From a virus (Duplodnaviria > Heunggongvirae > Uroviricota > Caudoviricetes), in IMG/VR virus record IMGVR_UViG_3300005253_000530: DNA of 64,000 bases; one strand, given 5' to 3'. Under the pieces are notes generated by a model. It saw nothing but the letters and a program-made list of their open reading frames with translations. It did not search any database and was not told the DNA's origin. Made by a program: the position numbers and the translations under genes. Below, one piece after another: positions 1,918-62,316 of this stretch (its first letter is position 1; every line of letters begins with the position of its first letter).

Positions 1918-1925
1918 TTACATGT

Positions 1926-1999: not shown

Positions 2000-2007
2000 T
2001 TTATTTA

Positions 2008-3658: not shown

Positions 3659-3730
3659 TGCTTCCAGAGGGTATCGATCCCACTTCTGCGGGGTGAAGGC
3701 CCGCTATCCTAGCCAGTAGACGATGGAAGC
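3659..3730 (-). tRNA. tRNA-Glu (anticodon UUC)
   Basis: Acceptor GCTTCCA/TGGAAGC, Glu-type D-arm TCGTCTACTGGCTAGGA, anticodon stem GCGGG/CCCGC loop CCUUCAC, T-arm GTGGG-ATCGATA-CCCTC. Confidence 0.65.
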
Positions 3731-4131
3731 ATCTACTATATAAATGCTATACATATTAATGCGGCTATTATACTAATACCTATAAGTATAACAAGAACGT
3801 CATCAAATCCAAGTTTTCTTGGTTTATCCAATTCGTGAAAAAATCTATAATCTTCTGGATATATCATAATTTCTCCAATAAAAAAGGGATTCAGATTGTC
3901 TCTGAACCCCTTGGTGTTTTCTATGTTTCGTTTGTTTTATCCGGGATGTGGATCCGGATCCACCAAGGGATTTCCAATATGATTATCACGTTCTCTGAGC
4001 AAACTGGTGGCGGGCGTCCCTGTATATATAAATGAGACGGATAAACAACTCGGTTTTTGTTGCCTTAGTATGCTCGAAAACATTGTATCCTCCTTGGTTT
4101 AGTTGGTATTAATTTAGTATTGGTATATTAT

Positions 4132-13209: not shown

Positions 13210-14004
13210 TTATAATCCTGCGTATCCGCTATATCCATATACTTCTTCCATATGAGCTTGGTCCGTAGTTTCAGATTTGTCCCCTTTTTTTTCTCCTTCT
13301 TTTGGTTCTTTATCTGCTGGTATTTCAGCAAGTTTTGGAGCTTTGTAAGTACCCTCTTTAATAGCCTCTATCTTTGTTTTCATTCTCTCAATAGCACTAG
13401 ATATTGGATATTTTGTTGTTCTTCTTATCACAAAAGTTTCTATTTCTTTTTTCTTGTAGGTAGTGATAGGCCTATTATGATACGGAGCACCAGAATAAGC
13501 ATGGTTTACAGGGTTATAGGTTGCAGCTTTGCTAGTAGTTTTGTTAGCAGGTTTGTACGTAGGTTTTATATCGTCCTCTACTAGTTTCTTTGTCGCCTCT
13601 GGTACATTCGTATAACCATCTGTATCAATAAGTCCATTAGGGCGTAGCATATCGTACTCTTTTAGGGCTTCCTGGACACACGTCAGTCTTTCAATGTTCA
13701 CTTCTTCTTTATAGGCAGAATATTTAGTGTAAGAGCCATTTATATTGATTTCCATAAACTTGATCTCGTAATGGCTGAGATTTAGCATTTGAACTTCTTC
13801 ACCCTTCATCAGCCATACGAAAAGATCATTTTTATTGACCAATTGAACATTGATATCAACTAATCCACGCAAACCGAGGAAATACCCGGCAATTACTGGG
13901 CCTTTCTTGTCGGCTTTCGCCGTAAGCCCAACCACCACATATTTGATACCCTTAAGTTTCTCTGTTGTGAATGCTTTTTCTGTGACCATTTTTTCTCCTC
14001 GCAA
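13210..14004 (-). CDS. hypothetical protein
   Basis: 264-aa ORF in operon between ruvB-like and GNAT genes. Confidence 0.5.
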   Translation of the reverse strand: MRGEKMVTEKAFTTEKLKGIKYVVVGLTAKADKKGPVIAGYFLGLRGLVDINVQLVNKNDLFVWLMKGEEVQMLNLSHYEIKFMEININGSYTKYSAYKEEVNIERLTCVQEALKEYDMLRPNGLIDTDGYTNVPEATKKLVEDDIKPTYKPANKTTSKAATYNPVNHAYSGAPYHNRPITTYKKKEIETFVIRRTTKYPISSAIERMKTKIEAIKEGTYKAPKLAEIPADKEPKEGEKKGDKSETTDQAHMEEVYGYSGYAGL

Positions 14005-14404
14005 ATATTATAATATGTCTACCACGACCCCATCTTTTCCCTATAGGTCTCATACCTACCCGTAAATTATTCCTTATATTCGTGTGATTATCACTACCAA
14101 CAGCACCATATACAAATTCAGTAGTAGCCGCTTGAATGCCTTTTTCAAGTAGTTTTTTACCTAGTCCTCTTCTTCTATAATTAGGATGAACGCATAGGTG
14201 CTTGAGCTCAGTCGTAAGGCCATATTGCTCAAGCCCTATCACGCCCGTTATTATTTCTCCATCTAATTCTATTAGATATTTTACTGGACTAAGAAGTATT
14301 GAACTTTCGTTCAGTCGGGCCCATAGCTGATCTCCAGCATTGATCATATCTGCTATCTGTACAGCTATGTTCCTGGCACCGACTGTTAGTACAAATTTAC
14401 TCAT
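13952..14404 (-). CDS. GNAT family N-acetyltransferase
   Basis: Acetyl-CoA-binding motif LCVHPNYRRRGLGKKLLEKG. Confidence 0.75.
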   Translation of the reverse strand: MSKFVLTVGARNIAVQIADMINAGDQLWARLNESSILLSPVKYLIELDGEIITGVIGLEQYGLTTELKHLCVHPNYRRRGLGKKLLEKGIQAATTEFVYGAVGSDNHTNIRNNLRVGMRPIGKRWGRGRHIIIFARRKNGHRKSIHNRET

Positions 14405-14408
14405 TTAC

Positions 14409-15494
14409 TCACATGTCTCCCCTCATTAAGGCGGCTATTACGGCTTGTGCTTCTTCATCATTACGAACATTACGCATAACTCTGGTCATACCGCCATTAG
14501 GAGCCTCATCTGCTACTGCTGCACCAACCGCTCGGCCCCGTCTTGCTGCAGGCGCCGGTCTTGCTGCAGGACGTTCTTCTCTAGCAGGAGCCTCAATTTC
14601 ATTGATCTTGGCCCGGAATGCTTCCACATATTTCTGTAAAGCTGTTCCTTGTAGACCGGGGCCGCTGTTGATCTCGATAAGATAAGGGTTATTGTCCAAT
14701 CCAATTGCGCAATCGACCGCACCAAAGTCCAAACCGGTAACTTCTACGGACTTTATGGCCATAGCCTTCAATGCGTCTGAAACATTATTTAACGTGACGC
14801 CGGAAAACTTCCATCCCCTTTTGTTGCTTCGGACTATACGATCTGGCAGTTCAGCTTCCTTCACTAACAGGCTAAGAACATAATTCAAAGTGGATTCATC
14901 CAGATTTTGATTATTTTTCTGTGCATAATCTAGCACTTTTTCTTTACGCTGTGCGATCCAGCCGGCATCGGTCGGGTTTTCAACCTTCTTTACTGCATAT
15001 ATAACCTGACCAAAAGCCACATGGAGCCGATATTCGTCTTTGATGTCAATATAGTTCTGAAAATACTGGGCACCGTCATGAATGGCTCTTTCAACATGTT
15101 GCTTATTTAAACATGTCCAGAATCCTTTACCGCCCTGGTGAAAATTTGTGCGACCAACAAGCGGCAATTTGATGTCACTTCTCCGCCGGTCCATTGCAGC
15201 TATGACCTCATCAGCTCCGCAAAAGGCTGAGATAGCCGGTTTTGTCGCTCGATTTCCATACAAAGATGTCAATGTACTCATTTTGTTCCGGTTGTTTCGA
15301 ATTTTATCCGGGTGATTAAGTATGGTTGCGTTATCCAAACGTACAGCCGCATCTGTCTTGGCTCCCCATCCGATTATGATATCACCATTTTGGATACTCC
15401 GGGGCTTTGACTTTGTACCAGTTAATCCCAATGCGTCCGCTAAAGCCTGGCCGGTTACATCAGTTGCTCCACTAAACCAAATATATTTTGACAT
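14409..15494 (-). CDS. ATP-grasp ligase (RimK/alpha-L-glutamate-ligase-like) with GC-rich Ala/Arg/Pro-rich C-terminal tail
   Basis: ATP-grasp motifs EYRLHVAFGQV, GLDFGAVDCAIGLDNNPYLIEINSGPGLQG; last about 60 aa PAREERPAARPAPAARRGRAVGAAVADEAPNGG encoded by locally GC-rich DNA. Confidence 0.75.
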   Translation of the reverse strand: MSKYIWFSGATDVTGQALADALGLTGTKSKPRSIQNGDIIIGWGAKTDAAVRLDNATILNHPDKIRNNRNKMSTLTSLYGNRATKPAISAFCGADEVIAAMDRRRSDIKLPLVGRTNFHQGGKGFWTCLNKQHVERAIHDGAQYFQNYIDIKDEYRLHVAFGQVIYAVKKVENPTDAGWIAQRKEKVLDYAQKNNQNLDESTLNYVLSLLVKEAELPDRIVRSNKRGWKFSGVTLNNVSDALKAMAIKSVEVTGLDFGAVDCAIGLDNNPYLIEINSGPGLQGTALQKYVEAFRAKINEIEAPAREERPAARPAPAARRGRAVGAAVADEAPNGGMTRVMRNVRNDEEAQAVIAALMRGDM

Positions 15495-15764
15495 GTTATT
15501 TCTCCTTATTTTAATAGGTTAAAATCCCTTTCTACTCCACTCCTCCTATTTAGCTACCACCGTGTCTATACTGACAGGCGCTGTGACAACCGCTGTTATC
15601 TCGTCTTTTGCTGGGTTTGCAGTCATGGTGACAAAAGACTGACTATTAGGAAAGCTATAGCGTGCCTCAATATACTCTGCTATAGCCTGCAAGATATTAT
15701 CGTTCGTCAAAGTAAATATAGATTTCTCTTTATTGCCTAATAGTTCCATGTTATTCCCCCCTTG

Positions 15765-17108
15765 TTATATTATGAAATTACTATTACCAACCCATGTGTG
15801 CTTCAATCCTTTCTCCCTTTCATTCAGCACATTCTGAGGTAATCTAACTACCTCTATAAATTTATCTATATAATCAGCATACTCTCTGTATGTCTGTAAT
15901 GACCTGTATCTTGACTTTAGCTCATCGAAATAACTTTTTCTGAATTCTATTTCCCATTTATGTAATATATTTTGCATAGCTCCAGAGCTAGAAGTAGTAT
16001 TAAATGCCTTTGTAATTTCTATATTCTTCCATTGATCAAAAGACATATCGAAGAAAGTCAAATCAGTGTGGGCATACCAATCATCGGTCTCTTGGTGTTC
16101 TTCGGTCATAATCAAAGAATGCTTAAAATTACCATCTTCTAAGGCTCTAAAATATGCGTGAGCTATAGCTTTTACTGTGCCTATGACTATTCTGGCCAGT
16201 TCTGGATGAGTTAACCACTCACCACTTAAAGTACGATACTCTAATCTATTATGATCAGTCTTGTGATCTCCAAAGCGACCAAATGACTTTCTACGCTTCA
16301 TTCCATTCTTTTTACCATCAAGCTTCATCATTGGTACAGCTACATAATCGTCTAATATTCTTTGTAGACACGCGTACACTGCGTGTGAGTAATTACTACC
16401 AAATGAACTTATCTTTTGAGCTAAATTTGCTGGTGTCCCTAAATGTATGTGGCCTCCAACAGGCCAGTCCCTTCGACTGTTGTCAGGATCCGCACCCGAT
16501 TCATGCCCAGAATGGTTACACCCACCGACCCATTCATACAGAGCTATTAACTTTGTATTAGGGTGATTTGTTAGTATGCCATGTATATTACTTACAAAAT
16601 CTTCTACTAGTATCGCAGGCTTTGGCCTTAGTTCAGCCAATGGCCCGTCTGATCCGAGCTCGTCATTATGACTCAGATTATTTACTTTTGATGCATACAT
16701 TATGTTACCATCCTTATTAAATAACATAAACTCAGGGTCACCGCCTACTACTGTGTCCTCAACTGTATCTGCTAACCATATATTCTCTTTACTCCCGCTA
16801 CCGTTCTTACAGACATAGCTAAATATAGTAGAAGTTACAAAACCAACCCTTTCAAAATCGTCAGCACTCATAGATTCTTTAGCTTTTTTTAGATCTGAAG
16901 AGTAAGCTTGGAATATTTCGAGACTTTTACTTCTGTTTATTCGTCCATTTGTATCAGTATTAGGCCATACCTCTACAACTTTTTCATCAGCTAGCCCAAG
17001 ATTTTCTCTAGCTTTTACTCCTAGTCTGATCAGACCGTTTTCATTCCTATCATTCTTTCTGTTGGAATCCATTCGGTCTGATATGACTAATATTAATGGA
17101 GCTTTCAT
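15765..17108 (-). CDS. GCS2/glutamine-synthetase-like carboxylate-amine ligase (amidoligase), paralog B
   Basis: GGDPEFMLFNKDGN ... GSDGPLAELRPKP ... GGHIHLG; shared with 22726..23928 and 41042..42268. Confidence 0.6.
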   Translation of the reverse strand: MKAPLILVISDRMDSNRKNDRNENGLIRLGVKARENLGLADEKVVEVWPNTDTNGRINRSKSLEIFQAYSSDLKKAKESMSADDFERVGFVTSTIFSYVCKNGSGSKENIWLADTVEDTVVGGDPEFMLFNKDGNIMYASKVNNLSHNDELGSDGPLAELRPKPAILVEDFVSNIHGILTNHPNTKLIALYEWVGGCNHSGHESGADPDNSRRDWPVGGHIHLGTPANLAQKISSFGSNYSHAVYACLQRILDDYVAVPMMKLDGKKNGMKRRKSFGRFGDHKTDHNRLEYRTLSGEWLTHPELARIVIGTVKAIAHAYFRALEDGNFKHSLIMTEEHQETDDWYAHTDLTFFDMSFDQWKNIEITKAFNTTSSSGAMQNILHKWEIEFRKSYFDELKSRYRSLQTYREYADYIDKFIEVVRLPQNVLNEREKGLKHTWVGNSNFII

Positions 17109-17120
17109 ACGTCATCCCTC

Positions 17121-18944
17121 CTAACTTTTTGTTTCTTTTGCTTTCTTAATGACTTCTTTTACCTCTTTAATCATTTCTTGTTCTCGGGTATTAAATACTT
17201 CTGCTATTTTATCCATGTTCACTGAAATGTCACTTCCAGACACTGCGTTAAACAGTCTGGCTCTTGCACTAAGATTTTGGCCCTTTCCATTGCTAATACT
17301 TGAAGTCACATCATAGAATTTTGCAAGTGCTAGAACCATAGACTTCAATCCAGCTATATGACTTTCTCTGCGTTTAGATTTCTCGTCGTCAGCTGAAGAT
17401 GGGCCTTCTGATTTTTTCATAGCTGTTTCATATCCGGCCATGAACCCGTCCTTCCAGTTGATATTGAATGCTCTGTTGGCTACCATAACTATGCCAAGCT
17501 GTTCGGCTTTCTTCTCATTTTGAATATCTATAGCAGAAATAAGATCTTCCATGTTCCCATATCCCTTTTTATCTATAGGCATGTCAGTATATGCATTAGT
17601 AGCAGCTTCTATAATCTCTTTGGGATATTGCTTCATGTTAACTTCAGTTACTTTGATATCTTTTTCATCTATATCTATGACTTCATCATCTGATCCTTTA
17701 TTCTCAGTATATGTTGTTTTGTCATCGATATCCACCGAAGAGTCACTATCTTTTTGCTCAATAGTATCCTTGTCTCCATCATCAGTGTCTGATTTTTTAT
17801 TAGCTATTATCATTGCTGTTGTAGTAGATCCAGTGGTTGTATTCTTTACTGTTTTGACCTCGTCAGTATCTACAGATATAGCAGCAGACTCGTCATCTTG
17901 TATTTCAGTATCTCCAATTTTTACTACATACTTTTTCGTAATCTTATCAAATACTCTACGTGTTGGTTCTTCCTTTTTCTCATCGGGTTTATTATAAGAG
18001 TACGGCTTACCGTAATTTTTACCGGTGCTATATGTCGTAGCAGTTGTAGCTATCCATATTTTGCTACTTCGCTCTATTTTACTCCACTCACCTAGGTCAT
18101 CAATGGTAGTATCTTCTGTAACCTGCTGAGTCAAATCAAATATCATAGCGGAATCATCTGGCAGACTTTTCTTTTCAACAAGCTTTTTATTGAGAAAGGT
18201 TGGTAGATCCGAACCACAAAGCTCAGGATAATATCTAGGCCATCTTACATATCTGAAATGTATTTTATTCCAGAACTTTTCTTCAGATATTATTAGTAAT
18301 ATACCGTATTCTTTCAGCAGCACAAATTCTACAGGGCGACTATCACGAAATATTGGTACTTGATATGGGTTATCAGCATTGAACAGGGAGATTGCAAACT
18401 GACCATCTAGTCTATTTACTATATTTTGTATCATATTCATAGTAAATGGCTCTTTGCCACAGTTCGTGTAATGATCAAATAGCCTGAATATTGCTTCACT
18501 GTCTACTTTTCCATCTCGTTTGCATCCAAGCTTTTTGAATATTTCATCTGGATTCCTAATCACTCCATTATGAATGCCTATTAAATTACCAATTTTGATA
18601 GGGTGATTATTTTCATTGTCTTCTTTATCACCGGCTGTAGCAGCTCGACAATGTCCCAGAAAAATTCTACTAGGGGCTTTATGTTCTCTCCACACTTTTA
18701 ACAGGCTGCCGTACCATTCTTTCGATTCACCAAACATAGATAAGTAATCAGTGGCTCGTTGGCCTCTTTTTAATCCCATATATTTGCCATCATCGAACAA
18801 TATGGCTGCTCCTGTGGCATCTTTGCCTCTTTCTTCGGTGGCTATCAGCAGTTCGGTTGTGAAGTATTGCATTACCCCTTGCCTTACGATTTCGTCCTTT
18901 TCGCTTAATTTGCCGAATGCCAGTGCAACTACTATTCCGCACAT
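17121..18944 (-). CDS. class-II glutamine amidotransferase (Ntn, N-terminal Cys) with long low-complexity C-terminal extension
   Basis: MCGIVVALAFG N-terminus (catalytic Cys2), GHCRAATAG, Gn_AT_II-type core; Thr/Asp/Ser-rich linker then C-terminal domain. Confidence 0.7.
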   Translation of the reverse strand: MCGIVVALAFGKLSEKDEIVRQGVMQYFTTELLIATEERGKDATGAAILFDDGKYMGLKRGQRATDYLSMFGESKEWYGSLLKVWREHKAPSRIFLGHCRAATAGDKEDNENNHPIKIGNLIGIHNGVIRNPDEIFKKLGCKRDGKVDSEAIFRLFDHYTNCGKEPFTMNMIQNIVNRLDGQFAISLFNADNPYQVPIFRDSRPVEFVLLKEYGILLIISEEKFWNKIHFRYVRWPRYYPELCGSDLPTFLNKKLVEKKSLPDDSAMIFDLTQQVTEDTTIDDLGEWSKIERSSKIWIATTATTYSTGKNYGKPYSYNKPDEKKEEPTRRVFDKITKKYVVKIGDTEIQDDESAAISVDTDEVKTVKNTTTGSTTTAMIIANKKSDTDDGDKDTIEQKDSDSSVDIDDKTTYTENKGSDDEVIDIDEKDIKVTEVNMKQYPKEIIEAATNAYTDMPIDKKGYGNMEDLISAIDIQNEKKAEQLGIVMVANRAFNINWKDGFMAGYETAMKKSEGPSSADDEKSKRRESHIAGLKSMVLALAKFYDVTSSISNGKGQNLSARARLFNAVSGSDISVNMDKIAEVFNTREQEMIKEVKEVIKKAKETKS

Positions 18945-18946
18945 AT

Positions 18947-20188
18947 TTATACCTCCTCCTCTTCAAAAAGTTTCGTTTGTAAATAATCCGACCTACCCGT
19001 TACCTTCTCCTTTACGACTTTACTTTTGTTATTTTTGATATTTACATCATTCGGAATTTCTTTTGATATCTTATCCCTAACCAAGCTCATAGCTTTTGAT
19101 GAGCGCATGTCATGTGGTCTACGTATTGCTTCACCATCAATTGTAAACACATTTTCTTTAGATTTAGAAAACACAAATCTATAAGTGGCGGACTTCATTT
19201 TTGAGATTATGTCCTGCCCTTTAATTGACGAGTTTGTAATAAATACTTCCATACATATACCACTGGCTTTTTTAGAGTCAAATATTGGTAATACATCCCC
19301 TAATTCATAAAAGCTTATAGATACAATATCAGTTATTACTTTTACACGGTTGTGAGGATATTGAAAGAAACTTATATGGTGGGGATATGCTTTTGTCAAC
19401 ACACTATAAAAAGAATTTATATCCTCTAACATATACTTCAAGTTAGATGTACCGACTCCTGAAAATGTGTAGTTTATAAATCTATTACTTTGCAAGCGCT
19501 CAGATAATAGATCAGGGAAATTAGAAACATCAGAACTATTATGTACATCAGAAAGCCTATCTAATTCTGTATGTATGCCATTATCAAATATTAAAGGCAA
19601 TGATCCATCTATATAAAATTTTTTTGTATTTGTCGAATGGATGACATAGTCTATTGTAGCATTCCATATACTAAATGGAATAATAACATTTATATTATCT
19701 AAAGAGTTGGATAAAATGCTATTTGCTTTTGCCAAATCCTTTTTAGCTATGTGATATATATCTTTGGCTGTAGACTTCTTAGCTTCAGTGGGTATAGGCT
19801 TTTTAGGCTCAGGCTTTGAATTAGTTATTTTACCTGTAGTTATTTTACCTGTAATTGTTTTATTCGGAAGTCTTTCTTCATCCCCCCTTCCTTCGTAACA
19901 TGATAATCCTTCTACGTAACTGCGGACACCTCTATCACTTGTTGGTGATCTAGGCACAGGTCGACCAGATCCACTAGGTAAAATTGGTACCATTGTTGAC
20001 TTAGATAATTCCCAAGAATTATGTGAATTATTACGGCTAATTATACCATCATATACAACGAATGGTTGTATAATGGCAATACATGGAGTACCTACTGACA
20101 TATCGTCATATGTAGAAGTGGTGATACCGGCTATACAGTTATCTTCTGGATAAATTTCTTGTAAAAATTTTAGTTTCTCTACGTACAT
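18947..20188 (-). CDS. hypothetical protein in amidoligase operon
   Basis: 413-aa ORF, stop/start coupled to neighbours; ITGKITTGKIT short repeat. Confidence 0.5.
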   Translation of the reverse strand: MYVEKLKFLQEIYPEDNCIAGITTSTYDDMSVGTPCIAIIQPFVVYDGIISRNNSHNSWELSKSTMVPILPSGSGRPVPRSPTSDRGVRSYVEGLSCYEGRGDEERLPNKTITGKITTGKITNSKPEPKKPIPTEAKKSTAKDIYHIAKKDLAKANSILSNSLDNINVIIPFSIWNATIDYVIHSTNTKKFYIDGSLPLIFDNGIHTELDRLSDVHNSSDVSNFPDLLSERLQSNRFINYTFSGVGTSNLKYMLEDINSFYSVLTKAYPHHISFFQYPHNRVKVITDIVSISFYELGDVLPIFDSKKASGICMEVFITNSSIKGQDIISKMKSATYRFVFSKSKENVFTIDGEAIRRPHDMRSSKAMSLVRDKISKEIPNDVNIKNNKSKVVKEKVTGRSDYLQTKLFEEEEV

Positions 20189-20200
20189 TTACTACCTCCA

Positions 20201-21130
20201 TTAATATCCATTCATAATACAATTAGAACATACTCCTGCGTTACATTCAGACATCATGTCATATCCTGTATTGCATAGACTGCAATCATGTGCATTACTA
20301 TTACCCCCAATTTCTCTCCGTTTTCCAGCAGACCATGGATGCTTATAGTCGTCATTGTCTAAATCGAATTCTAATATTTTGCCAGTTTCCAGGTCTATTC
20401 TTACCCCGCTCATAGAGATGTCTATACTTTTACTGGTATGTGCAGGGTTTAGCCACTTAGAGTGCTCTAGAGATTCATTTAGTATGAATTTACTAGATGC
20501 AAAAACCATACTTCTTACATTTTTGTATATATATAATATTGCATTGGGATATGATAGTGCATTACTGAATAGAGTCAAATACCTTGGCATATCAGTGTGT
20601 ATAAAAGCACAAGCATATGATCCTGTCATCTCTCCGTGAGCAAGTTTTACTGCTTCAACTATTGTTTTGCCAGTAGAAATATGATAATCTATTAATCTAA
20701 ATATTATTTCACTATCTACTTGCCCCAGTCTGTTTATACAATCTGAATATTTACTAAATAAACTATCATCATTACCCACCATGCCATTATGTACTCCAAT
20801 AACTTTATTAGCTATTATCGGATGGTTGTTTTCATTTAAACGCTGAGTACCTTTAGTTTTTTGTCTTGTGTGCCCTATCATAGCTTTAAAGTTTTTAGCG
20901 CAGTTTATATTTTTTACGACGTCACTATATTCAGTAGTACGCACCAGCTTTGATCCTTTGAAAGCCTCTTTATATACAGAAACTTTTTCTTCTGTCAATA
21001 CACATATACCCGAAGCATCTTTACCTCTTGATTCTGATGCTTTAAGCAAATTATAAGTGGCTTTACGAAATGAATGAGCTTTATCATAAGAATTTGGCCC
21101 ATAGTTTATCAACCCAAATATTCCACACAT
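20201..21130 (-). CDS. class-II glutamine amidotransferase (Ntn, N-terminal Cys), short form
   Basis: MCGIFGLINYG N-terminus, GHTRQKT, NNHP motifs. Confidence 0.7.
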   Translation of the reverse strand: MCGIFGLINYGPNSYDKAHSFRKATYNLLKASESRGKDASGICVLTEEKVSVYKEAFKGSKLVRTTEYSDVVKNINCAKNFKAMIGHTRQKTKGTQRLNENNHPIIANKVIGVHNGMVGNDDSLFSKYSDCINRLGQVDSEIIFRLIDYHISTGKTIVEAVKLAHGEMTGSYACAFIHTDMPRYLTLFSNALSYPNAILYIYKNVRSMVFASSKFILNESLEHSKWLNPAHTSKSIDISMSGVRIDLETGKILEFDLDNDDYKHPWSAGKRREIGGNSNAHDCSLCNTGYDMMSECNAGVCSNCIMNGY

Positions 21131-21143
21131 AAAAGTATTTCTC

Positions 21144-22772
21144 CTATACAGACAACATGCATCCAGTAGAATCCGACCAGATCATTTCGCCTTCTCTCAT
21201 TTTTGTATCTACAAATAATTCAATTTCCTCTTTACTGACTGTATCAGTAAGATCTTCGTCTTCTGATAAGCACTTTTGGACTTCTATTACCCATTCATCA
21301 CAGCTTACGCAGTCATCAATTAGTTTTAGATCGATTATTTCACTCAACTTCACTTCTAATATATCTGTACTCTTTATTTCAACAGCTAGATCCTCTTCTA
21401 TTTCTTTCCATGTTTTTCCATCCATTAAGTGTAAGGAAGCAGGACGTTCGGCTAACTTAATAAGAATATTGTATGCTGGGCCTATCTTCAGTAATATACT
21501 TTTCAATTGATTTACTAGATCAAGGCTTTCTTCTACAAAGTACTGCGTATTGTCCAACAAATGTCTAGTATCACTCATGCGACTACTATCGTTATAATCA
21601 CCGCAGCCATTCAGGATTGTTTCTTTCATAGCCTTAGCCTTCTTCAACCAAGCCTCATCCCCAACTTTCAATAATCCGTATCTGCTTATTTCGACCGCCT
21701 TTATAACAATAGCATAATGTAAACAAGCCAAAGCTGCATAATAGGTGGGACACATAGTTGAATCCGCCTGCCTGAATTCAATATGAAATCTATCTATATC
21801 TCCACCACTAAACCTGGTTTTGTTATAATTGATAAATCCATATTTGTTGCCACCAGCATGTCTAGATACATCTTCAATAACACGCCTCATATCCTTTGTA
21901 ACGGGCGATACATCAAGGATACCTACTCTAAATTTTTCCCAGCGAGTCATGTGTCTGGGGTCACCTAGGGCTATGGTCATCCATGTTAATGCATTCTGAT
22001 ATCTCCTGCATAACTGATGAAAATTTGCAAGAACTATTTGGGGCATAGGTTTTTCTAATTCATTGGCCCCATCACCCTCATAATAACTGGTTAATACGTG
22101 CATATGGGAACCAGTTCTTTCGTTTAAATATCCACCATATTTTTCTACTTTATCCAATATTCTTTTGGACATTGTATAGAATTCCCAGAAGTCTACACGC
22201 CGGCCAACGGTTATAATCTCTACGCCTTTGTCACCAAGTAGAGAACCATCTGTTGTTATACCGACAACACCAGATGGGCCTACCTTACCGTATGTTTTAC
22301 TAGGCTGCAACTCCGTATTCAAATTTTGCCTAATGTGCTTTGGGTCCTTATTTATGTTATACTTTTTAGAACAACTACCACAGTTCTTATCGAAATGATT
22401 ACATGTAAAACACGCACTAATAAAATCCACACAAGTACTACCTATGCATGAGAACTCATATTTATTGCATTTTTTACACTTGTCTGGCTTACATTTTCGG
22501 CTTTGTGCTATACATGTATCATAGCATTTTTCTTTTTGACAGACTGGTGTATTAGTACATTCTTTCCAGCAGCCATCGCCTATACGAGTACAAGGACATT
22601 GTATATTATCACCTTTACAGGATCCTTTTTGATCTGGTAAGTTGAATTCAAATTCAATTCCAACTTTCAACAGTTTCCGCATTGATTCTTTCCAATATCT
22701 AGCCTCTGCTGCACCTAGTGCTGGTTTAGACGGATGACTGTAGAACTGCCATTTCTCTCTGTTGTTCCTCAT
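21144..22772 (-). CDS. Cys-rich GS/GCS2-like amidoligase-family protein
   Basis: N-terminal LLKVGIEFEFNL (GxExE strand of carboxylate-amine ligases) followed by a Cys-rich insert (about 25 Cys). Confidence 0.45.
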   Translation of the reverse strand: MRNNREKWQFYSHPSKPALGAAEARYWKESMRKLLKVGIEFEFNLPDQKGSCKGDNIQCPCTRIGDGCWKECTNTPVCQKEKCYDTCIAQSRKCKPDKCKKCNKYEFSCIGSTCVDFISACFTCNHFDKNCGSCSKKYNINKDPKHIRQNLNTELQPSKTYGKVGPSGVVGITTDGSLLGDKGVEIITVGRRVDFWEFYTMSKRILDKVEKYGGYLNERTGSHMHVLTSYYEGDGANELEKPMPQIVLANFHQLCRRYQNALTWMTIALGDPRHMTRWEKFRVGILDVSPVTKDMRRVIEDVSRHAGGNKYGFINYNKTRFSGGDIDRFHIEFRQADSTMCPTYYAALACLHYAIVIKAVEISRYGLLKVGDEAWLKKAKAMKETILNGCGDYNDSSRMSDTRHLLDNTQYFVEESLDLVNQLKSILLKIGPAYNILIKLAERPASLHLMDGKTWKEIEEDLAVEIKSTDILEVKLSEIIDLKLIDDCVSCDEWVIEVQKCLSEDEDLTDTVSKEEIELFVDTKMREGEMIWSDSTGCMLSV

Positions 22773-23928
22773 TACCTAGCAACCTCCAATTCAACTCTAT
22801 ATTTTCATTAAACCTTGCTTTTTTATGAGCGTAATTCAATATGTAGTCAAAATAATTTATTATTTGTGTCTGGTTATCTTTGAATCCTATCATCATAGAC
22901 AGATCGTTTAGTATTGCATCTATGTGTGACATGGACTTATTCATTGTTTCTGAAACTACGCTGTCATGTACTACATTTTCATTCGGTAAATTAGGGTATA
23001 GTTGTCTAAGATCTTTGTAATCTCTAAACCATATCTTTTTCCTAAATCTATCAGAATGAGCACTTAATCTACTCAGTATATCTTTCATAACAACTATACT
23101 TATAGACAAAATGCCAGATGAAAGTATAGGGTGCCGTAATAAGTGGCCTCCTGGTACTCTATACTCTAATGTCATCATGTCATGCCTGAAATCTCCAGGT
23201 TTACCATAATGACTGAATCTCTTAGATCGTCGATAGAAATCCTCGTTACCTTCAGGTAATACAGCTGGTATTCCAACGTAGTAATCCAGGACACTTACTA
23301 TATTTCCAAGTAAGGCGTGCATGTTTTGTAACATAAATTGTGGTAGTCCAAAATGTATGTGGTATCCAGCAGATGCATTATTACAATGGGAAGAAGCTTC
23401 CATTCTTATGTCTTGTTTTCTAAATAATACTCTGTTACTAATATGCTCATGTGCTCTGGCCATTAGTTTATACAATTCCTCTGATACACCTTTTTCCTTT
23501 AAACTTGGCCGTGGTCTTATCTCTGCCAGGCCACAATCACTCCCAACTTCTCCATAATGAGGAAAAAAGTGGCTTGCTGATACATTGAATCCGGTAGTCT
23601 TATTCACCAGAAAAAATTCCGGGTCACACCCTATAAGTATATCATCGGCTGGTTTTATACTTGATATTAGATTTAGATCCAATAAATCATGTGTGTCTGT
23701 ATTTACATATACGCTTTCATTGTCTTCAAAGGCGTCAATTTCATAAGCTGTTGATACTTGTAGTGCTATTGGTTCTCCATCTTTGCCGTTTAGGCATAAA
23801 AAAAGTCCGGGCTCTAACCCGAACTCTTCTCTCAATTTTAGGGGTATTCGTATCAACCTATTTTCAATAGACCCCAACGGAGATGTATCTTTCCCCATAG
23901 ATGGAGATACTTTTATCTTGAACCTCAT
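22726..23928 (-). CDS. GCS2/GS-like carboxylate-amine ligase (amidoligase), paralog A
   Basis: IGCDPEFFLVNKTTG ... GSDCGLAEIRPRP ... AGYHIHFG. Confidence 0.6.
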   Translation of the reverse strand: MRFKIKVSPSMGKDTSPLGSIENRLIRIPLKLREEFGLEPGLFLCLNGKDGEPIALQVSTAYEIDAFEDNESVYVNTDTHDLLDLNLISSIKPADDILIGCDPEFFLVNKTTGFNVSASHFFPHYGEVGSDCGLAEIRPRPSLKEKGVSEELYKLMARAHEHISNRVLFRKQDIRMEASSHCNNASAGYHIHFGLPQFMLQNMHALLGNIVSVLDYYVGIPAVLPEGNEDFYRRSKRFSHYGKPGDFRHDMMTLEYRVPGGHLLRHPILSSGILSISIVVMKDILSRLSAHSDRFRKKIWFRDYKDLRQLYPNLPNENVVHDSVVSETMNKSMSHIDAILNDLSMMIGFKDNQTQIINYFDYILNYAHKKARFNENIELNWRLLGNEEQQREMAVLQSSV

Positions 23929-38217: not shown

Positions 38218-39015
38218 TTATTCCCCTGTTTTCTTTTCGACTAAAATCTTGTCTTCCTCGTACTTAATTCTTTTCTGAAAATTACTGGACACATCCGTGA
38301 TTAATGCTGATTGGATTTTCTTGAGTTCTCCCAATAGAACCTGCACATTATCAAACTGACCATCAGCGTGCAGCTTATTGTAGATATTCAGTACAAGAGT
38401 AGACGGCTCGATGTTATCGCGATCAGAAGCATATATAGCTCTTGATGTAGCTTCTACTTGATCGCAGAGCATCAGAATTAATGATTCCAAGGAATCTGGC
38501 CTACCAGTTTTATATCTAAACGCATTAATATTAGCTTTAGGGTCTTTAGACTTTGCTTTCTCAAATATAGATTGTACTGGACAGGTTCCATGGTGCTGGC
38601 TTACGATTCTTATTACATCATCAGGAAAACCATTTGCTACTAGAATAGTGACGGTGTCAGACACATGTCTTGTGATAAGCACGTAACTAACCCATGGTGG
38701 TAAGCCATCATGTATATTGTCTTTGCCTTGATTTTCTGTATATGATTCCGGAAACCACATTTTGCCAATATCATGGTATAGAGCGGACATTTGCAATTTA
38801 TGTGGATCTTTATCTACAGCTGCACAAACATTTTCTACTGAACCCATCAGAGATTGGTCATGTTTATGACTTCCCGGAGCTTTCTCTCGAAACTCTTTCA
38901 ATAAGTGAAATTTAGAATCCATAGGCCCAATTTTCTTGTCTTCTTTATCCTCATACACTTCTTGATCTGCTTCTACCATGGGACTTCCTCCTGCTATATC
39001 TTTGTACAAAGTCAT
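38218..39015 (-). CDS. HD-domain metal-dependent phosphohydrolase
   Basis: HD motif LYHDIGKMW and downstream His/Asp residues. Confidence 0.65.
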   Translation of the reverse strand: MTLYKDIAGGSPMVEADQEVYEDKEDKKIGPMDSKFHLLKEFREKAPGSHKHDQSLMGSVENVCAAVDKDPHKLQMSALYHDIGKMWFPESYTENQGKDNIHDGLPPWVSYVLITRHVSDTVTILVANGFPDDVIRIVSQHHGTCPVQSIFEKAKSKDPKANINAFRYKTGRPDSLESLILMLCDQVEATSRAIYASDRDNIEPSTLVLNIYNKLHADGQFDNVQVLLGELKKIQSALITDVSSNFQKRIKYEEDKILVEKKTGE

Positions 39016-39664
39016 GCATATCCATTTTTATGAAATCTTTTACCATAGTTAAATAATGTAGCCTAGCAGTAGAATTTATTGTCATAAACTCTGGGTGGTA
39101 TTGAACTCCCATCGAGTTGATTTTAGGGAATATTGCTGCCTCCACCTCTTCATCTGGTGGATTCTTTCTAGTACCTTTTGGGCCTATATATGCCGCAGAT
39201 CTTCTCGGCTCTGCCCAAGCTACAATTTCTGCATCTTTTCGTAGCTTCACTAGTTGGTGATGGGTACTTGTCACATCCATAAAAGAATCCATGTGGCTTA
39301 CATACACACCATGTTGTCTAGCTATACTATGATTGGTTATATGTTGATACATAGATCCACCAGCCATAACATTCAGGAATTGAAAACCACGGCATACACC
39401 AGTCATTTTTATATCATACTTTCTACAATAATCAAATATTTTTTTTTCGTACATATCACGTTTGAAATTCGTCATACATATTTTTCTTGGATCTTTCCCA
39501 TTGTAAAAATAGGGATGTATGTCCTCACCACCAGTAAATAATGCAAGCGATATTTTTTCTGGCGTCTTAATGAGTTTATCTACGCTCTTTGTAACGGATC
39601 CAACTTTATTGAGTAAATGTTTGTAAAGAGGATCTCCTCCAACTATTAGAATTTTATCCTTCAC
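38951..39664 (-). CDS. class-I glutamine amidotransferase-like / peptidase C26 (gamma-glutamyl hydrolase, PuuD-like)
   Basis: Catalytic Cys motif MTGVCRGFQFLNV and C-terminal His region GVQYHPE. Confidence 0.65.
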   Translation of the reverse strand: MKDKILIVGGDPLYKHLLNKVGSVTKSVDKLIKTPEKISLALFTGGEDIHPYFYNGKDPRKICMTNFKRDMYEKKIFDYCRKYDIKMTGVCRGFQFLNVMAGGSMYQHITNHSIARQHGVYVSHMDSFMDVTSTHHQLVKLRKDAEIVAWAEPRRSAAYIGPKGTRKNPPDEEVEAAIFPKINSMGVQYHPEFMTINSTARLHYLTMVKDFIKMDMHDFVQRYSRRKSHGRSRSRSV

Positions 39665-40754
39665 TTGTGATCTCCTTTTGCTTTGATGCTCTTTTATATT
39701 TTATTATTGATCTGCTTTTTAGGAATTTTGTTACATACATTCGGGATGTGGTATCTTCAGCAGCCATTATTGCCTTTATTATATCAGGATCTAATGCCTC
39801 ATATATGTTTATATTAGCATGTATGGCAGATATTTTACCAATAATAGATGAGCACAAGAAACTACTTGTGCATTGATGTGCTAAATTTTTATCGTGTTTC
39901 TTTGGGTTTGTTGCAAATCGTTGTAAACCTATCATCCAGCTTATATCAGTAGTAGCAGCTTCAATATTAGATAGCTTAGTCTTTGTTTTTTTGTACCTAC
40001 CAGTTTTTGGATTTATCAGTCGTGGAACTTCATTGTACTTTCTAAACACAGTTATAGTGTGGTGTTCAGTAGTACTAATAGCTATACGGCTCGCAAATAC
40101 ATAGGCAGCATAAAAGTTCATCTTACATTTATCAGTGAGGTATATCGCAACTCTAACAAGCCCAGGATCTTCCCTTAAAACTCTTAACATTGATAGGTAT
40201 AGATATAATTGAGCTTGAGTTAAATCTGTGAGATCCAATACTGCAGTACCCTTTCCAACTGCGTTGTGTTCATTATAAGAATAATTGCCATTACCCAGTT
40301 TAATAGGAAATTCAAACATTTCTATCAAATTTTCATCTATATAATCCGGTAGCATTTTATGCTCTTCAGCAAGCTGTATCCATCTGATACATTCTTCCAT
40401 ACTCAGCAGAATATTAGCACCAGGATTATAGTATTTTCGCTTTTTACTATAAGGCTCCTTAAGATAAATAGTATAAAATATTCGATTATATTTATCGCTT
40501 TGTTTGTATAATTTGCCTAATAACCCTGCAAAACACGCATGATTAGTGTTTTTCCAGATGTCCTTTGTATTTGAATCAATGTCATGTATATCATCTGGCA
40601 GCCTATCATCATGGAACAAGCCATATTCTGTATAGTTGATCCCAGGTGCATAGCTCATGTTTACTATATCTCTATCTATCCATGGTTTTTGCCTATGAAT
40701 GGATGGCAGTGTTTTTTTTACGCTATTGTCAGATCGTTCGTTGGCTGTTCGCAT
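39654..40754 (-). CDS. hypothetical protein
   Basis: 366-aa ORF. Confidence 0.5.
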   Translation of the reverse strand: MRTANERSDNSVKKTLPSIHRQKPWIDRDIVNMSYAPGINYTEYGLFHDDRLPDDIHDIDSNTKDIWKNTNHACFAGLLGKLYKQSDKYNRIFYTIYLKEPYSKKRKYYNPGANILLSMEECIRWIQLAEEHKMLPDYIDENLIEMFEFPIKLGNGNYSYNEHNAVGKGTAVLDLTDLTQAQLYLYLSMLRVLREDPGLVRVAIYLTDKCKMNFYAAYVFASRIAISTTEHHTITVFRKYNEVPRLINPKTGRYKKTKTKLSNIEAATTDISWMIGLQRFATNPKKHDKNLAHQCTSSFLCSSIIGKISAIHANINIYEALDPDIIKAIMAAEDTTSRMYVTKFLKSRSIIKYKRASKQKEITSEG

Positions 40755-41041
40755 GCGTTTTCTTTTTTCTCCTTTTCCGCAACTTCTATAAACATCAATT
40801 CGGTCATTCGGATTGCAGGTATGAGCTTGAATACAACATCTTTGCTAGTTGAATTATCTTCAATTCTGATAATATAATGTGATTCATCTCTTTGATTTAT
40901 ACCTTGATACCCATCCCTTTTAAAATAGATGTCTGTTACCACTAAGTCTTCCATACCAACAGGAGTTTTTCCAACTTCATAGGTAAAATCATTAGCTATT
41001 AAACATACAATTTTTTTCATAGTATTAATACCCCCTTTGTT

Positions 41042-42268
41042 TTAGTACAATTCTTTCAAAAGACTTGCTTGAAATTTCATAAAATCCTTATTATCCTTTA
41101 GCTTTTGATATGATCCCATTACCATGCCGCGGCTTGACCGAAAGTCGTTGTTTACACACCATTCCTTTTTTAGATCTTTATCAATTACACTATATACACC
41201 GTTTTCACGCATGTATTCAAATGAAGCCAATGAATGTACAATTTGACCTTCTGGGCCTTGTGGCGGATTTTCCCACGGCGAATGCCCTTCCTCTACGTAA
41301 CTTTGTATAGATCCTCTTAAAGATCCTATATGTAAAGGGTTACATGAAGACAGCCCTGTAGATGCAAGGTAGGGTCGCAGATTTTTCCATATTTTATCCG
41401 CTGTGATAATATCGCTCTCATCGATAACTCCACGAATAGTTTCTTCATCGAATCCTACGGCTTCTCTATAAGTTTCGTCCATGTTAATAGTCACCATTGA
41501 CCATGCCATTCTTGCCAATCCATATACTAATGATACGAACATTGGCGATTTTAGCCACCAGCAACTGGGAGTTCTGTACTCTATGCCATAAGGAGTCGGT
41601 CTAAAACATCCGGCTTTACCATATTTTGATCTTCTCAGTTTAGATCCATTGTCGTTATCAAGGCGCATTGTAGGTATGGTAAGTAGTAAATCCAAGAATC
41701 GTATAAGCCGAATATGCCCGTCTTCTGTTTTTGCAAGCTTGTACTCCGGCTGATCCTTCGATAGATACGGTGAAGACAATCCAAGGTGTATGTGACCACC
41801 GGCGTATCTATGTGGATGCTCAGAGGCGTCCATTTCTGGAGTGTTTGTGGTACATGTATAAGCATTGAAATCTGGTTCGCATCCAAATACACGTGCTTCT
41901 GGATCAGCTTTGTTTATAACTGACTCGCGGATTTTTTCAGCTGGAGAAAGAATAATTTGATGATTCTTTGGTATTCTATTATAAACTTCTCTCCATACCT
42001 TTTCGATATTACCTGCGAAGTATTCTCTACACGACTGATGAGCTACAGCCATCTCGGCCTGTATACCATCGAAAAACAGTCTGCTAAGTTTACCGTCCCT
42101 GGCTTGTACTTTTATAGGATCATTTTTGCTGGGGAAGAAATTATCAGCACTTCGCACCCGGCCTTTCTCATCACCTATAAAAAACTCTGGGTCTCCACCT
42201 ATCCTGGGTAAATAATTGACTTTGTATATTCTGCGTCCTATTTCCTTATCTATCTCCGAAATCTTCAT
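41042..42268 (-). CDS. GCS2/GS-like carboxylate-amine ligase (amidoligase), paralog C
   Basis: IGGDPEFFIGDEKG ... RYAGGHIHLG. Confidence 0.6.
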   Translation of the reverse strand: MKISEIDKEIGRRIYKVNYLPRIGGDPEFFIGDEKGRVRSADNFFPSKNDPIKVQARDGKLSRLFFDGIQAEMAVAHQSCREYFAGNIEKVWREVYNRIPKNHQIILSPAEKIRESVINKADPEARVFGCEPDFNAYTCTTNTPEMDASEHPHRYAGGHIHLGLSSPYLSKDQPEYKLAKTEDGHIRLIRFLDLLLTIPTMRLDNDNGSKLRRSKYGKAGCFRPTPYGIEYRTPSCWWLKSPMFVSLVYGLARMAWSMVTINMDETYREAVGFDEETIRGVIDESDIITADKIWKNLRPYLASTGLSSCNPLHIGSLRGSIQSYVEEGHSPWENPPQGPEGQIVHSLASFEYMRENGVYSVIDKDLKKEWCVNNDFRSSRGMVMGSYQKLKDNKDFMKFQASLLKELY

Positions 42269-61881: not shown

Positions 61882-62316
61882 CTATATAATTGCTATTGGC
61901 CCTTTTCTAGCAGCCTCACCTTTTTCTTTTTTAGTGGCTGATTTACACCACTCTTTCCAATCCTTTATTTTCGTCAGTCCCTGGACGTCACCGCAATAGG
62001 TATAAATTATTGCTGGGCCTTTCAGTGTCTTGATAGTATTGCGCTCATATAATCCAGTATGGACGCCCTCTATTGCATCCATTATTTCGAGTATGCCCTC
62101 TTCTTGTAACTTGCTAACATACAGCTCCCACACCTCGGCTATAATACTATCGCCTTCGCTTAATTTGGCCCCAGGAACATTACCAACTACATACATGGCG
62201 ATTCCGCCCAGCTCTCTCAAATCCATAGAATGCGATTTTGCCATATTTTTAAAGGATTCAATCCAATCATGTAACTGACCGCCTACTCTAAACGATCCAT
62301 ATACAGCTATTCTCAT
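61882..62316 (-). CDS. gamma-glutamyl cyclotransferase-like (AIG2/GGCT fold) protein
   Basis: N-terminal MRIAVYGSFRVGG (YGS motif) and downstream AEVWEL Glu. Confidence 0.55.
   Translation of the reverse strand: MRIAVYGSFRVGGQLHDWIESFKNMAKSHSMDLRELGGIAMYVVGNVPGAKLSEGDSIIAEVWELYVSKLQEEGILEIMDAIEGVHTGLYERNTIKTLKGPAIIYTYCGDVQGLTKIKDWKEWCKSATKKEKGEAARKGPIAII

Follow-up and report, generated by a model that had tools for sequence, protein, structure and literature searches.

A jumbo-phage gene block that appears to be an expanded form, with added domains, of a widespread predicted amidoligase module

Judging from its sequence, the gene block at 13952-23928 of the window (the whole 64,000-nucleotide stretch of viral DNA analysed here, IMG/VR record IMGVR_UViG_3300005253_000530) appears to be an enlarged, domain-decorated jumbo-phage version of a widespread module of amide-forming and glutamyl-handling enzymes that has been predicted for phages. 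New here are double-psi beta-barrel (DPBB) domains on two ligases, a 16-Cys insert together with a winged helix on a third (CysLig), a second class-II amidotransferase (GAT-II) and a GNAT. As to function, we tentatively propose that this jumbo-phage version may form amide bonds on a macromolecular target, with chemistry centred on gamma-glutamyl and glutamine, a plausible reading that we hold with reserve.

Results

The range 13952-23928 is filled by a tight, co-oriented gene block that lies entirely on the minus strand. The initial annotation had described a ten-gene operon with overlapping stops and starts throughout; we counted nine ORFs of at least 60 aa, with gaps too short for any further ORF, and found a single overlapping junction (ligA/CysLig, 47 nt), the other seven junctions being gaps of 2-51 nt. 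The family assignments (GS-fold ligases, class-II amidotransferases, a RimK-like ATP-grasp and a GNAT), on the other hand, were all borne out. The ORFs of the block are as follows.

22726..23928, minus: ligA, 400 aa, COOH-NH2 ligase (GS/GCS2-like) with an N-terminal Cdc48-N-like DPBB of ~100 aa (PF14395, 1.5e-24)
21144..22772, minus: CysLig, 542 aa, apparently a divergent Amidoligase_2-like GS-fold ligase (GIEFEF), with 16 invariant Cys in an insert of ~100 aa and, at the C-terminus, a winged helix
20201..21130, minus: gatS, short class-II (Ntn) glutamine amidotransferase consisting of that domain alone (GATase_6, 2.4e-9; MCGI start)
18947..20188, minus: fast-evolving protein, 413 aa, in a variable position between gatS and gatL (no family match)
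17121..18944, minus: gatL, class-II amidotransferase domain (~1-300), low-complexity linker and conserved helical C-terminal region (GATase_6, 6.4e-13; MCGI start)
15765..17108, minus: ligB, 447 aa, COOH-NH2 ligase with an N-terminal Cdc48-N-like DPBB (PF14395, 1.6e-25)
15546..15749, minus: 67-aa ORF, lineage-specific insertion (no family match)
14409..15494, minus: ATP-grasp ligase of RimK-like type; its Ala/Arg/Pro-rich linker varies, and a short C-terminal helix is conserved (Pfam RimK, 3.3e-7; phrog_2599, 1.4e-32)
13952..14404, minus: GNAT N-acetyltransferase (Acetyltransf_1, 1.5e-10; Acetyltransf_7, 2.4e-10)

The genes of the block are real; the Pfam E-values of its family matches are beyond chance, and an uncultivated clade of jumbo phages keeps its gene order in 15 contigs, with CysLig identities of 41-90%. 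In these syntenic contigs, the block is flanked by a helicase on one side and a RuvB-like ATPase on the other, and it is the syntenic core of the clade's replication/transcription gene region. The GNAT, in which we read RRRGLGKKLL as a likely acetyl-CoA-binding motif, is found at the same position in all 15 syntenic loci. The 67-aa ORF, on the other hand, is absent in the closest relative (L016, 85% ligB identity, with a 27-nt gap in its place) as well as in all other syntenic loci, and is probably not part of the system.

The window holds three copies of the COOH-NH2_lig family (PF14395), namely ligA, ligB and ligC. Three paralogous DPEF/HIHxG ORFs had been attributed to the block; ligA and ligB do lie within it, sharing the motifs G(C/G)DPEF, LAE(I/L)RP(R/K)P and HIH(F/L)G, but ligC lies outside (41042-42268) and is without the LAExRP motif. 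The alignment of ligA with ligB spans both the N-domain and the catalytic core, with the DPEF, D, E, HxH, R and ExR positions invariant in both, and the residues invariant in the ligases are E126, E159, H220, H222, E290 and R292 in ligB numbering. These acidic, His and Arg residues sit where metal and ATP binding would be expected, from which we infer their roles. The catalytic fold is GS-like, as in the GS/GCS2 carboxylate-amine ligase superfamily. As for the N-domains of ligA and ligB, their assignment as DPBBs is supported both by sequence, with the profile matching designed DPBB proteins at 3.2e-5, and by structure, and in sequence they resemble Cdc48-N/VAT-N rather than RlpA.

CysLig, annotated initially as a fourth, Cys-rich ligase and confirmed here with all 16 Cys invariant, has a GS/GCS2 fold and the invariant residues E40, E42, E185, H223, H225, E332 and R334. 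It is not matched by the Pfam Amidoligase_2 model (PF12224); hhalign against 21 Pfam-confirmed Amidoligase_2 proteins gave a probability of 75% and an E-value of 2.5e-5, with the DGS, SHxH and ExR motifs aligned. We therefore regard CysLig as a probable divergent relative of Amidoligase_2 and not as a member by the Pfam threshold. Its Cys16 module is probably Zn-binding.

In class-II amidotransferases, HNG forms the oxyanion hole, while Arg and Asp bind the free alpha-carboxylate and alpha-amino group of the glutamyl moiety. The conserved R, HNG and DSE of gatS and gatL align with the glutamine-binding residues of this class, and Cys2, R100, H125-N126-G127 and D148-S149-E150 are invariant in both, save that the gatS orthologues of two lineages (L010 and L012) are without Cys2. 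In gatL, Cys2 is invariant in 32 homologues, and the gatL profile matches the GlmS/GFAT glutaminase domain at 3e-6. Both proteins thus appear to be class-II amidotransferases with intact catalytic residues, and gatS of the two exceptional lineages is a probable pseudoenzyme, a loss that fits a structural role. The gatL C-terminal region has no match among Pfam families or PDB sequences, and we found no acceptor (synthase) domain of known type, fused or partnered, gatS being a bare domain.

Additional members are found at two further sites, the second locus having been noted in the initial annotation.

41042..42268, minus: ligC, canonical small-phage-type COOH-NH2 ligase without DPBB domain (phrog_3815, 3.3e-43, full length; PF14395, 3.7e-14)
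39654..41020, minus: two ORFs, 366 aa and 100 aa, between ligC and the C26 gene (no Pfam or PHROG match)
38951..39664, minus: class-I GATase/peptidase C26 of the gamma-glutamyl hydrolase type (Peptidase_C26, 7.9e-22)
61882..62316, minus: GGACT/AIG2-like gamma-glutamyl(amine) cyclotransferase (Pfam GGACT, 2.9e-7; 31.5 bits, cutoff 22.8)

The C26 protein, encoded two ORFs downstream of ligC, carries GVCRG and QYHPE motifs, and its best sub-cutoff NCBIfam matches are gamma-glutamyl-CDP-amidate hydrolase and the gamma-glutamyl-GABA hydrolase of the putrescine pathway. The two intervening ORFs may belong to the system by virtue of their position. An SLT transglycosylase gene lies immediately upstream of ligC, and HD and NUDIX hydrolase genes flank this locus. 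At the third site, the GGACT-like protein has a YGSF motif, and its ORF is matched at 9e-12 by an HMM of the GGACT-like genes flanking small-phage modules. Members are thus spread over three sites (13952-23928, 38951-42268 and 61882-62316), ~15 kb and ~20 kb apart, with no single contiguous cluster.

Discussion

The amidoligase module, with PF14395 and PF12224, was reportedly predicted for phages by Iyer, Abhiman, Burroughs and Aravind in 2009 (Mol Biosyst). That prediction is quoted in PMC10580990, which credits the authors with a cell-wall precursor idea for phiEco32, and in publications up to 2025 it is still the sole source cited for the toolkit; we found no experiments on any module member in the searchable literature. 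[quoted passage not shown] Among the loci of 60 ligC relatives in IMG/VR small-phage contigs, we found the COOH-NH2 ligase in 57, GATase-I in 54, ATP-grasp in 51, GAT-II in 48 and Amidoligase_2 in 32, with all five families together in 27/60 and the C26 gene directly before the COOH-NH2 ligase in 51/60; GGACT genes recur beside these modules and in LUZ24-like phages. In Klebsiella phage Klyazma, the kit is annotated beside primase/helicase, sigma factor and DNA polymerase, and the same toolkit is annotated in LUZ24-like phages, in keeping with the initial view of the window as an unusually rich instance of a predicted toolkit.

All six module families are present in the window, counting the divergent CysLig, and their conserved motif residues are intact. 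The phiEco32/LUZ24/Zobellviridae-type module has the same enzyme families, including the C26/class-I GATase and GGACT, and likewise lies beside genes for replication and for a phage sigma factor. There remained differences between the window and the small-phage module: 1) members occupy three sites in the window vs. one contiguous cluster; 2) two extra COOH-NH2 ligases are fused to Cdc48-N-like DPBB domains; 3) a second GAT-II and a GNAT have been added; 4) CysLig, the probable Amidoligase_2 counterpart, has diverged beyond the reach of the Pfam model, and carries the Cys16 insert and winged helix. The small-phage ligases are without DPBB, Cys-rich or winged-helix domains, implying that the basic chemistry does not need them.

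Ligases of the GS-fold and ATP-grasp families use ATP to activate a carboxylate as an acyl-phosphate, which is then joined to an amine; in the known characterised members of the GS/GCL/PafA superfamily, the carboxylate is the gamma-carboxylate of a glutamate. We surmise that the chemistry of the window would likewise be centred on glutamate and glutamine, with the ligases acting one after another to form amide bonds, of gamma-glutamyl type or otherwise. Either the GAT-II, C26 and GGACT enzymes would donate amide nitrogen to the ligase-activated carboxylates, or they would remove gamma-glutamyl groups in the manner of EgtC, PuuD and BtrG, and the GNAT may cap a free amine with acetyl. The weakest step in this scheme is the substrate. 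We postulate that it is a macromolecule and not a free metabolite, probably a protein of phage or host that is modified early or in the middle of infection. The Cdc48-N-like barrels on two ligases and the Cys16 module and winged helix on a third make a macromolecular substrate the most likely, but these domains could instead serve to assemble a complex of ligases with glutaminases. We identified no substrate, tag protein or product. Two candidate substrates had been suggested previously, and neither is conserved: the ATP-grasp C-terminal tail is a variable linker, and the orthologues of the 413-aa ORF (18947-20188) are 19-41% identical and missing in two loci (L001 and L011).

Alternatively, the ligases might build a free peptide-like or gamma-glutamyl metabolite (e.g. 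an antimetabolite, a signal or a polyamine/amino-acid conjugate), which we consider possible, if rather unlikely. Gamma-glutamyl would here be a transient protecting or carrier group removed by GAT-II, C26 and GGACT, the GNAT would acetylate product or intermediate, and the extra domains would only assemble the enzyme complex, as is also suggested by the probable pseudoenzyme status of gatS in two lineages. In the ergothioneine (EgtA/EgtC), putrescine (PuuA/PuuD) and butirosin (BtrJ/BtrG) pathways, a ligase (GCS2, GS or ATP-grasp) is paired with a gamma-glutamyl-cleaving enzyme (GAT-II, C26 or GGCT), and the families are those paired in the phage module. The sub-cutoff NCBIfam matches toward EgtC, gamma-glutamyl-GABA hydrolase and cofactor alpha-glutamate ligases point the same way, as do the small-phage versions, being bare enzymes without a targeting domain, and the GATase residues apparently retained for binding a free glutamyl moiety. 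However, those matches fall far below equivalog cutoffs and the other enzymes of the three pathways are absent; the module also comes without tailoring enzymes (oxidases, methyltransferases, carrier proteins) and without an exporter, and Cdc48-N-like domains on two ligases and a winged helix on one are unusual for metabolite ligases.

It is improbable, in our estimation, that ligase/glutaminase pairs alter the wall by amidating or extending peptidoglycan precursors in the cytoplasm, as MurT/GatD and AsnB-type enzymes do, for superinfection exclusion or lysis tuning. For phiEco32, this idea is ascribed to Iyer et al. (as quoted in PMC10580990). Like the two known peptidoglycan amidation systems, the module does pair a class-I and a class-II amidotransferase with ligases, the SLT gene lies next to ligC, and the DPBB fold also occurs in the glycan-binding RlpA and expansin proteins, but the N-domains are unlike RlpA in sequence, Mur-ligase and lipid-II-related genes are absent, the module adjoins replication/transcription genes rather than lysis or surface genes, and GGACT would have no role in such a scheme. 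Equally hard to credit is an amino-acid-derived or amide-bearing side chain placed on a nucleotide or on phage DNA as protection from host nucleases. In its favour, replication genes consistently surround the module, both here (helicase and RuvB-like) and in small phages (primase and DNA polymerase), a winged helix and a Cys-rich module are found on CysLig, and the second locus is bordered by HD and NUDIX hydrolases, of families that in phages with modified bases often serve to remove canonical dNTPs. Yet we know of no DNA-base modification pathway that employs RimK-type or GS-fold ligases, the ~70 window ORFs scanned yielded no hydroxymethylase, DNA kinase, transglycosylase or glycosyltransferase, and the GATases seem built for binding a free glutamyl moiety.

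Returning to ligation on a macromolecule, PafA/Dop pupylation provides a precedent for this fold, and it too has Ntn-hydrolase partners. In contrast to pupylation, the Ntn proteins here are glutamine amidotransferases and not proteasome subunits, and identity to PafA/Dop is 8-10%. No conserved small ORF that might encode a Pup-like tag is present in the block, the 67-aa ORF not being conserved, and no proteasome or Mpa/ARC homologue was found among the ORFs scanned, in which the sole AAA+ neighbour is RuvB-like. A second comparison is with RimK, the poly-alpha-glutamate ligase of ribosomal protein S6, and with CofF/MptN. The ATP-grasp, conserved over residues 1-300 including an ExN motif, exceeds the Pfam RimK cutoff (30.5 bits vs. 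21, covering only part of the domain), in line with its first annotation, but is far below the NCBIfam cutoffs (rimK_fam, 38 bits vs. 143; S6 ligase equivalog, 22.7 vs. 331). It also matches MptN and CofF weakly, below the NCBIfam cutoffs, and bears a faint likeness to the R2K clade.

Gene content of the operon

Nine ORFs of at least 60 aa, all on the minus strand, fill the region 13952-23928; the gene block proposed in the initial annotation is real, but comprises nine genes rather than ten:

23928-22726, minus: ligA, COOH-NH2 ligase, 400 aa
22772-21144, minus: CysLig, Cys-rich ligase, 542 aa
21130-20201, minus: gatS, short class-II amidotransferase (GAT-II), 309 aa
20188-18947, minus: middle ORF without a family match, 413 aa
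18944-17121, minus: gatL, long GAT-II, 607 aa
17108-15765, minus: ligB, COOH-NH2 ligase, 447 aa
15749-15546, minus: small ORF, 67 aa
15494-14409, minus: ATP-grasp, 361 aa
14404-13952, minus: GNAT, 150 aa

Stops and starts had been described as overlapping throughout, but the sole overlap is that of ligA and CysLig (47 nt), the remaining seven junctions being gaps of 2-51 nt. A promoter and terminator scan, with counts no higher than in shuffled sequence, did not set the limits of the transcription unit. Of the three ligases with DPEF and HIHxG motifs, two (ligA and ligB) are in the operon; a motif search located the third (ligC) at a second locus, 41042-42268.

The assignments as ligase, class-II amidotransferase, RimK-like ATP-grasp and GNAT were upheld by Pfam: PF14395 ("phage phiEco32-like COOH.NH2 ligase type 2") matches ligA (1.5e-24) and ligB (1.6e-25), GATase_6 is matched by both gatS and gatL, the RimK domain by ATP-grasp above cutoff and several GNAT families by the last gene, with no Pfam match for CysLig, the 413-aa ORF or the 67-aa ORF. 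Among PHROGs, phrog_3815 ("COOH.NH2 ligase") matches ligA, ligB and ligC, the last at full length (3.3e-43), and phrog_2599 matches ATP-grasp (1.4e-32). NCBIfam matches were all below cutoff and are to be read at family level (GlmS, PurF and EgtC N-domains; rimK_fam/MptN/CofF; RimI/ArsN2). The predicted structures of ligB (pLDDT 92.3, pTM 0.91) and CysLig bear out the GS/GCS2 fold expected of the ligases, so that the lack of such a fold, which the initial annotation had set as a refuting outcome, did not materialise. An N-terminal, Cdc48-N-like double-psi beta-barrel (DPBB) is common to ligA and ligB and is absent from ligC; it was also detected by sequence, with a profile of the three ligases matching VCP-derived designed DPBB proteins (3.2e-5). 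In BFVD, ligB finds its best structural match in the COOH.NH2 ligase of 267 aa from Salinivibrio phage CW02, a protein lacking the DPBB.

CysLig and the class-II amidotransferases

More than 500 full-length metagenomic homologues of CysLig were found, none with a Pfam domain. In an alignment of 35 sequences, residues E40, E42, N44, D175-G176-S177, E185, R191-R192, H223, H225, E332 and R334 are invariant, as are 16 cysteines within residues 52-134; the AlphaFold2 model has a pLDDT of 84.2 and a pTM of 0.77. Compared by hhalign with 21 small-phage PF12224 (Amidoligase_2) proteins, all Pfam-confirmed, CysLig aligned with 75% probability (E 2.5e-5), the DGS, SHxH, KY and ExR motifs coinciding from just past the Cys-rich segment. 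On these alignments we consider CysLig to be the divergent Amidoligase_2 counterpart of the kit. A search through the full set of 1.84 billion representative proteins gave only 213 relatives of CysLig. Some of these, of ~430 aa, retain the catalytic core and the winged helix and lack the Cys-rich segment, which is therefore an insertion. No relation of CysLig to the COOH-NH2 ligases emerged by hhalign (probability 1.4%), a common fold being the sole link, and a PDB sequence search gave no match for the CysLig profile or for the Cys-rich insert alone.

Both gatS and gatL hold invariant Cys2, R100, H125-N126-G127 and D148-S149-E150, which we take, by analogy with the GlmS/PurF family, to be the nucleophile (Cys2), the ligand of the alpha-carboxylate (R100), the oxyanion hole (HNG) and the ligand of the alpha-amino group (Asp). 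A PDB sequence search with the gatL profile gave a match to the GlmS/GFAT glutaminase domain (~3e-6) and none for the C-terminus of gatL. In two related loci, L010 (11652-12401) and L012 (11650-12381), the gatS orthologues start with MGGIFG and MSDIFG instead of MCG, having lost the catalytic Cys; they are probably pseudoenzymes retained in place, and this retention without a nucleophile hints at a structural role for gatS within a complex.

Dispersed members of the kit

The whole kit is present in the window, but dispersed over three sites. At and beside locus 2, which carries ligC, and at the third site lie the following genes:

38951-39664, minus: Peptidase_C26/class-I GATase, with ligC at locus 2 (7.9e-22; GVCRG and QYHPE motifs)
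38218-39015, minus: HD hydrolase, directly downstream of the C26/ligC locus
37155-37709, minus: NUDIX hydrolase, directly downstream of the C26/ligC locus
61882-62316, minus: GGACT/AIG2-like gamma-glutamyl cyclotransferase, third site (Pfam 2.9e-7)

Two ORFs without a Pfam or PHROG match separate ligC from the C26 gene, with an SLT transglycosylase upstream and the HD and NUDIX genes downstream. The GGACT gene, which the initial annotation does not mention, is ~38 kb away from the operon; it matches the GGACT cluster of the small phages at 9e-12 and is homologous to the GGACT genes flanking their amidoligase modules. Near it lie, on the minus strand, genes for a SLOG/YspA (DprA-like) domain protein (63029-63442) and an SPFH/Band-7 protein (57072-57953). 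A 284-aa protein (44327-45181, minus) is a weak homologue (5.5e-6) of a protein without assigned family whose gene comes directly after that for ATP-grasp in nine modules of small phages, and could be a further member.

Conservation in jumbo phages and candidate substrates

Metagenome look-ups and an IMG/VR scan yielded 15 further loci, with CysLig identity of 41-90%, on contigs of up to 270 kb for the syntenic loci and 327 kb for one in the collection; alignment-based and ligC-based queries of IMG/VR were productive, and ligB alone as a pattern gave no match. All loci share the gene order RNAP – (SSB) – DUF2924 – helicase – ligA – CysLig – gatS – variable ORF – gatL, followed by ligB – ATP-grasp – GNAT – ~250-aa protein – RuvB-like ATPase – sigma-like protein – CCA-adding enzyme. 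Within an uncultivated jumbo-phage lineage the operon thus belongs to the core, lying inside the replication/transcription region. In every related locus the polymerase-like protein is conserved upstream of the operon. In the window it has 1163 aa (29513-33004, minus) and combines RNA_pol_Rpb2_6 (beta-type) and RNA_pol_Rpb1_2 (beta'-type) domains, resembling a fused two-barrel RNA polymerase. A megablast with the complete operon as query gave no match in 50,697 phage records, and the phage lacks a close sequenced relative among them. The "Jug" gut jumbo phages were rejected as a source, since they have a GC content of 27-30%, compared with ~36-37% in the window, and the paper on them names none of the enzymes of the operon.

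None of the candidate substrates qualifies. Both that had been suggested, the C-terminal tail of ATP-grasp and ORF 18947-20188, are excluded as obligatory substrates, the tail by its variability (a variable linker, then a short conserved helix) and the ORF by its fast divergence (19-41% identity among orthologues) and its absence from two loci, L001 and L011. The 67-aa ORF is likewise excluded as lineage-specific, being missing even in an 85%-identical relative, L016. Just past GNAT, a 264-aa protein (13210-14004, minus) has an acidic, aromatic-rich C-terminal tail that recalls SSB-type tails; its position is kept in 12 of 14 mapped loci and its sequence is weakly conserved; it too was set aside, its terminus not being conserved. 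The Ala/Arg/Pro-rich linker of ATP-grasp (~14450-14600, minus) falls within the GC-richest 2-kb bin (0.42 vs. ~0.36-0.37 in the window overall).

A fixed kit in small phages

The sole matches in 50,697 phage records, at 27% identity, were Klebsiella phage Klyazma and one relative. The Klyazma region is annotated as glutamine amidotransferase, amidotransferase, COOH-NH2 ligase, amidoligase and ATP-grasp protein, directly adjoining primase/helicase, sigma factor and DNA polymerase; the LUZ24-like phage UFV-P2 similarly has COOH-NH2_lig, Amidoligase_2, GATase, ATP-grasp and AIG2/GGCT protein, then primase/helicase. Sixty loci from the ligC scan of IMG/VR, mostly of 20-100 kb phages, were scored by HMM.

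Families in the HMM census of 60 loci
COOH-NH2 ligase: 57/60
Class-I/C26 GATase: 54/60
ATP-grasp: 51/60
GAT-II: 48/60
Amidoligase_2: 32/60
All five together: 27/60

Pfam revealed nine additional, divergent Amidoligase_2 proteins among the flanking ORFs, and a GATase-I gene immediately precedes the ligase gene in 51 of the 60 loci. Beyond these, nothing recurred in a set of 117 flanking ORFs except GGACT/AIG2 gamma-glutamyl cyclotransferase and scattered genes of DNA metabolism; by clustering, GGACT-like genes and a primase zinc-finger protein each adjoin the module in 14 loci. The census defines a fixed kit of three ATP-dependent ligases and three enzymes of gamma-amide-cleaving families, a composition which points to gamma-glutamyl and glutamine chemistry.

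This kind of system was reportedly predicted by comparative genomics by Iyer and colleagues in 2009 and is routinely annotated already; in the literature searchable up to 2025, we found only that prediction and no experimental work on the module. The module is found in phages of the phiEco32, LUZ24, HMO-2011 and Zobellviridae types and, here, throughout a jumbo-phage clade; it is among the most widespread phage gene sets without known function. Compared with the small-phage versions examined, the split layout, the duplicated ligases and GAT-II and the added GNAT are new in the window, and the three domain accretions (Cdc48-N-like, Cys-rich and winged-helix) are absent from those versions. Testing is no easier here than in culturable phages; the gain lies in fresh clues and a well-defined kit, with the three domains as concrete handles for a target search.

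Proposed chemistry and target

The kit enzymes are present and conserved, with family motif residues kept. GS, GCL, YbdK, PafA-type and ATP-grasp enzymes form amide bonds via acyl-phosphate intermediates, and the characterised GS-fold members known to us all activate the gamma-carboxylate of glutamate. GAT-II, C26 and GGACT enzymes target the gamma-amide of a glutamyl group with free alpha-amino and alpha-carboxyl groups. Characterised pairings are EgtA/EgtC (GCS2 and GAT-II), PuuA/PuuD (GS and C26) and BtrJ/BtrG (ATP-grasp and GGCT), and every ligase/hydrolase pairing in the phage module has a precedent in one of them. We surmise that the kit performs amide ligations in succession on a glutamate/glutamine basis, with the glutaminase-type enzymes supplying amide nitrogen to ligase-activated carboxylates or removing gamma-glutamyl groups, and with GNAT capping an amine.

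The nature of the target is the weakest step. The PafA/Dop precedent and the extra domains (two Cdc48-N-like barrels, a winged helix and the Cys16 module) lead us tentatively to favour a macromolecule, probably protein, in the jumbo-phage clade, which is quite conceivable if short of an even chance; these domains could equally be there to build an enzyme complex. In one specific form, which we regard as unlikely, the outcome would be a tag-free, pupylation-like conjugation: two ligases would recognise the substrate via the barrels and a third via its Zn-cluster and winged-helix module, choosing a host or phage protein (e.g. a replication/transcription component encoded around the operon) and putting on glutamyl or short peptide adducts via isopeptide bonds; the amidotransferases, C26 and GGACT would amidate or trim these adducts, and GNAT would cap them. 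Were the target a protein, this would be a viral post-translational modification of a new type.

That the product is instead a free metabolite is rather doubtful, though a serious contender. Nucleotide or DNA modification would fit the location among replication genes and the nearby HD and NUDIX genes of locus 2, such pairs often clearing canonical dNTPs in phages whose DNA is modified, but we consider it very improbable. Amidation of cell-wall precursors, the 2009 suggestion as quoted in PMC10580990, strikes us as highly unlikely.

Other features of the window

An N6/N4 DNA methyltransferase (6.7e-40) adjoins a LAGLIDADG homing endonuclease (5263-6950, minus). The window also encodes two CCA-adding tRNA nucleotidyltransferases and an RlaP nucleotidyltransferase of RNA-repair type, together with seven clustered tRNA genes, two of them for tRNA-Glu (9423-10790, 54822-56192, 52313-53200 and 397-3731); collectively, these indicate that the phage invests heavily in supplying and repairing tRNA.
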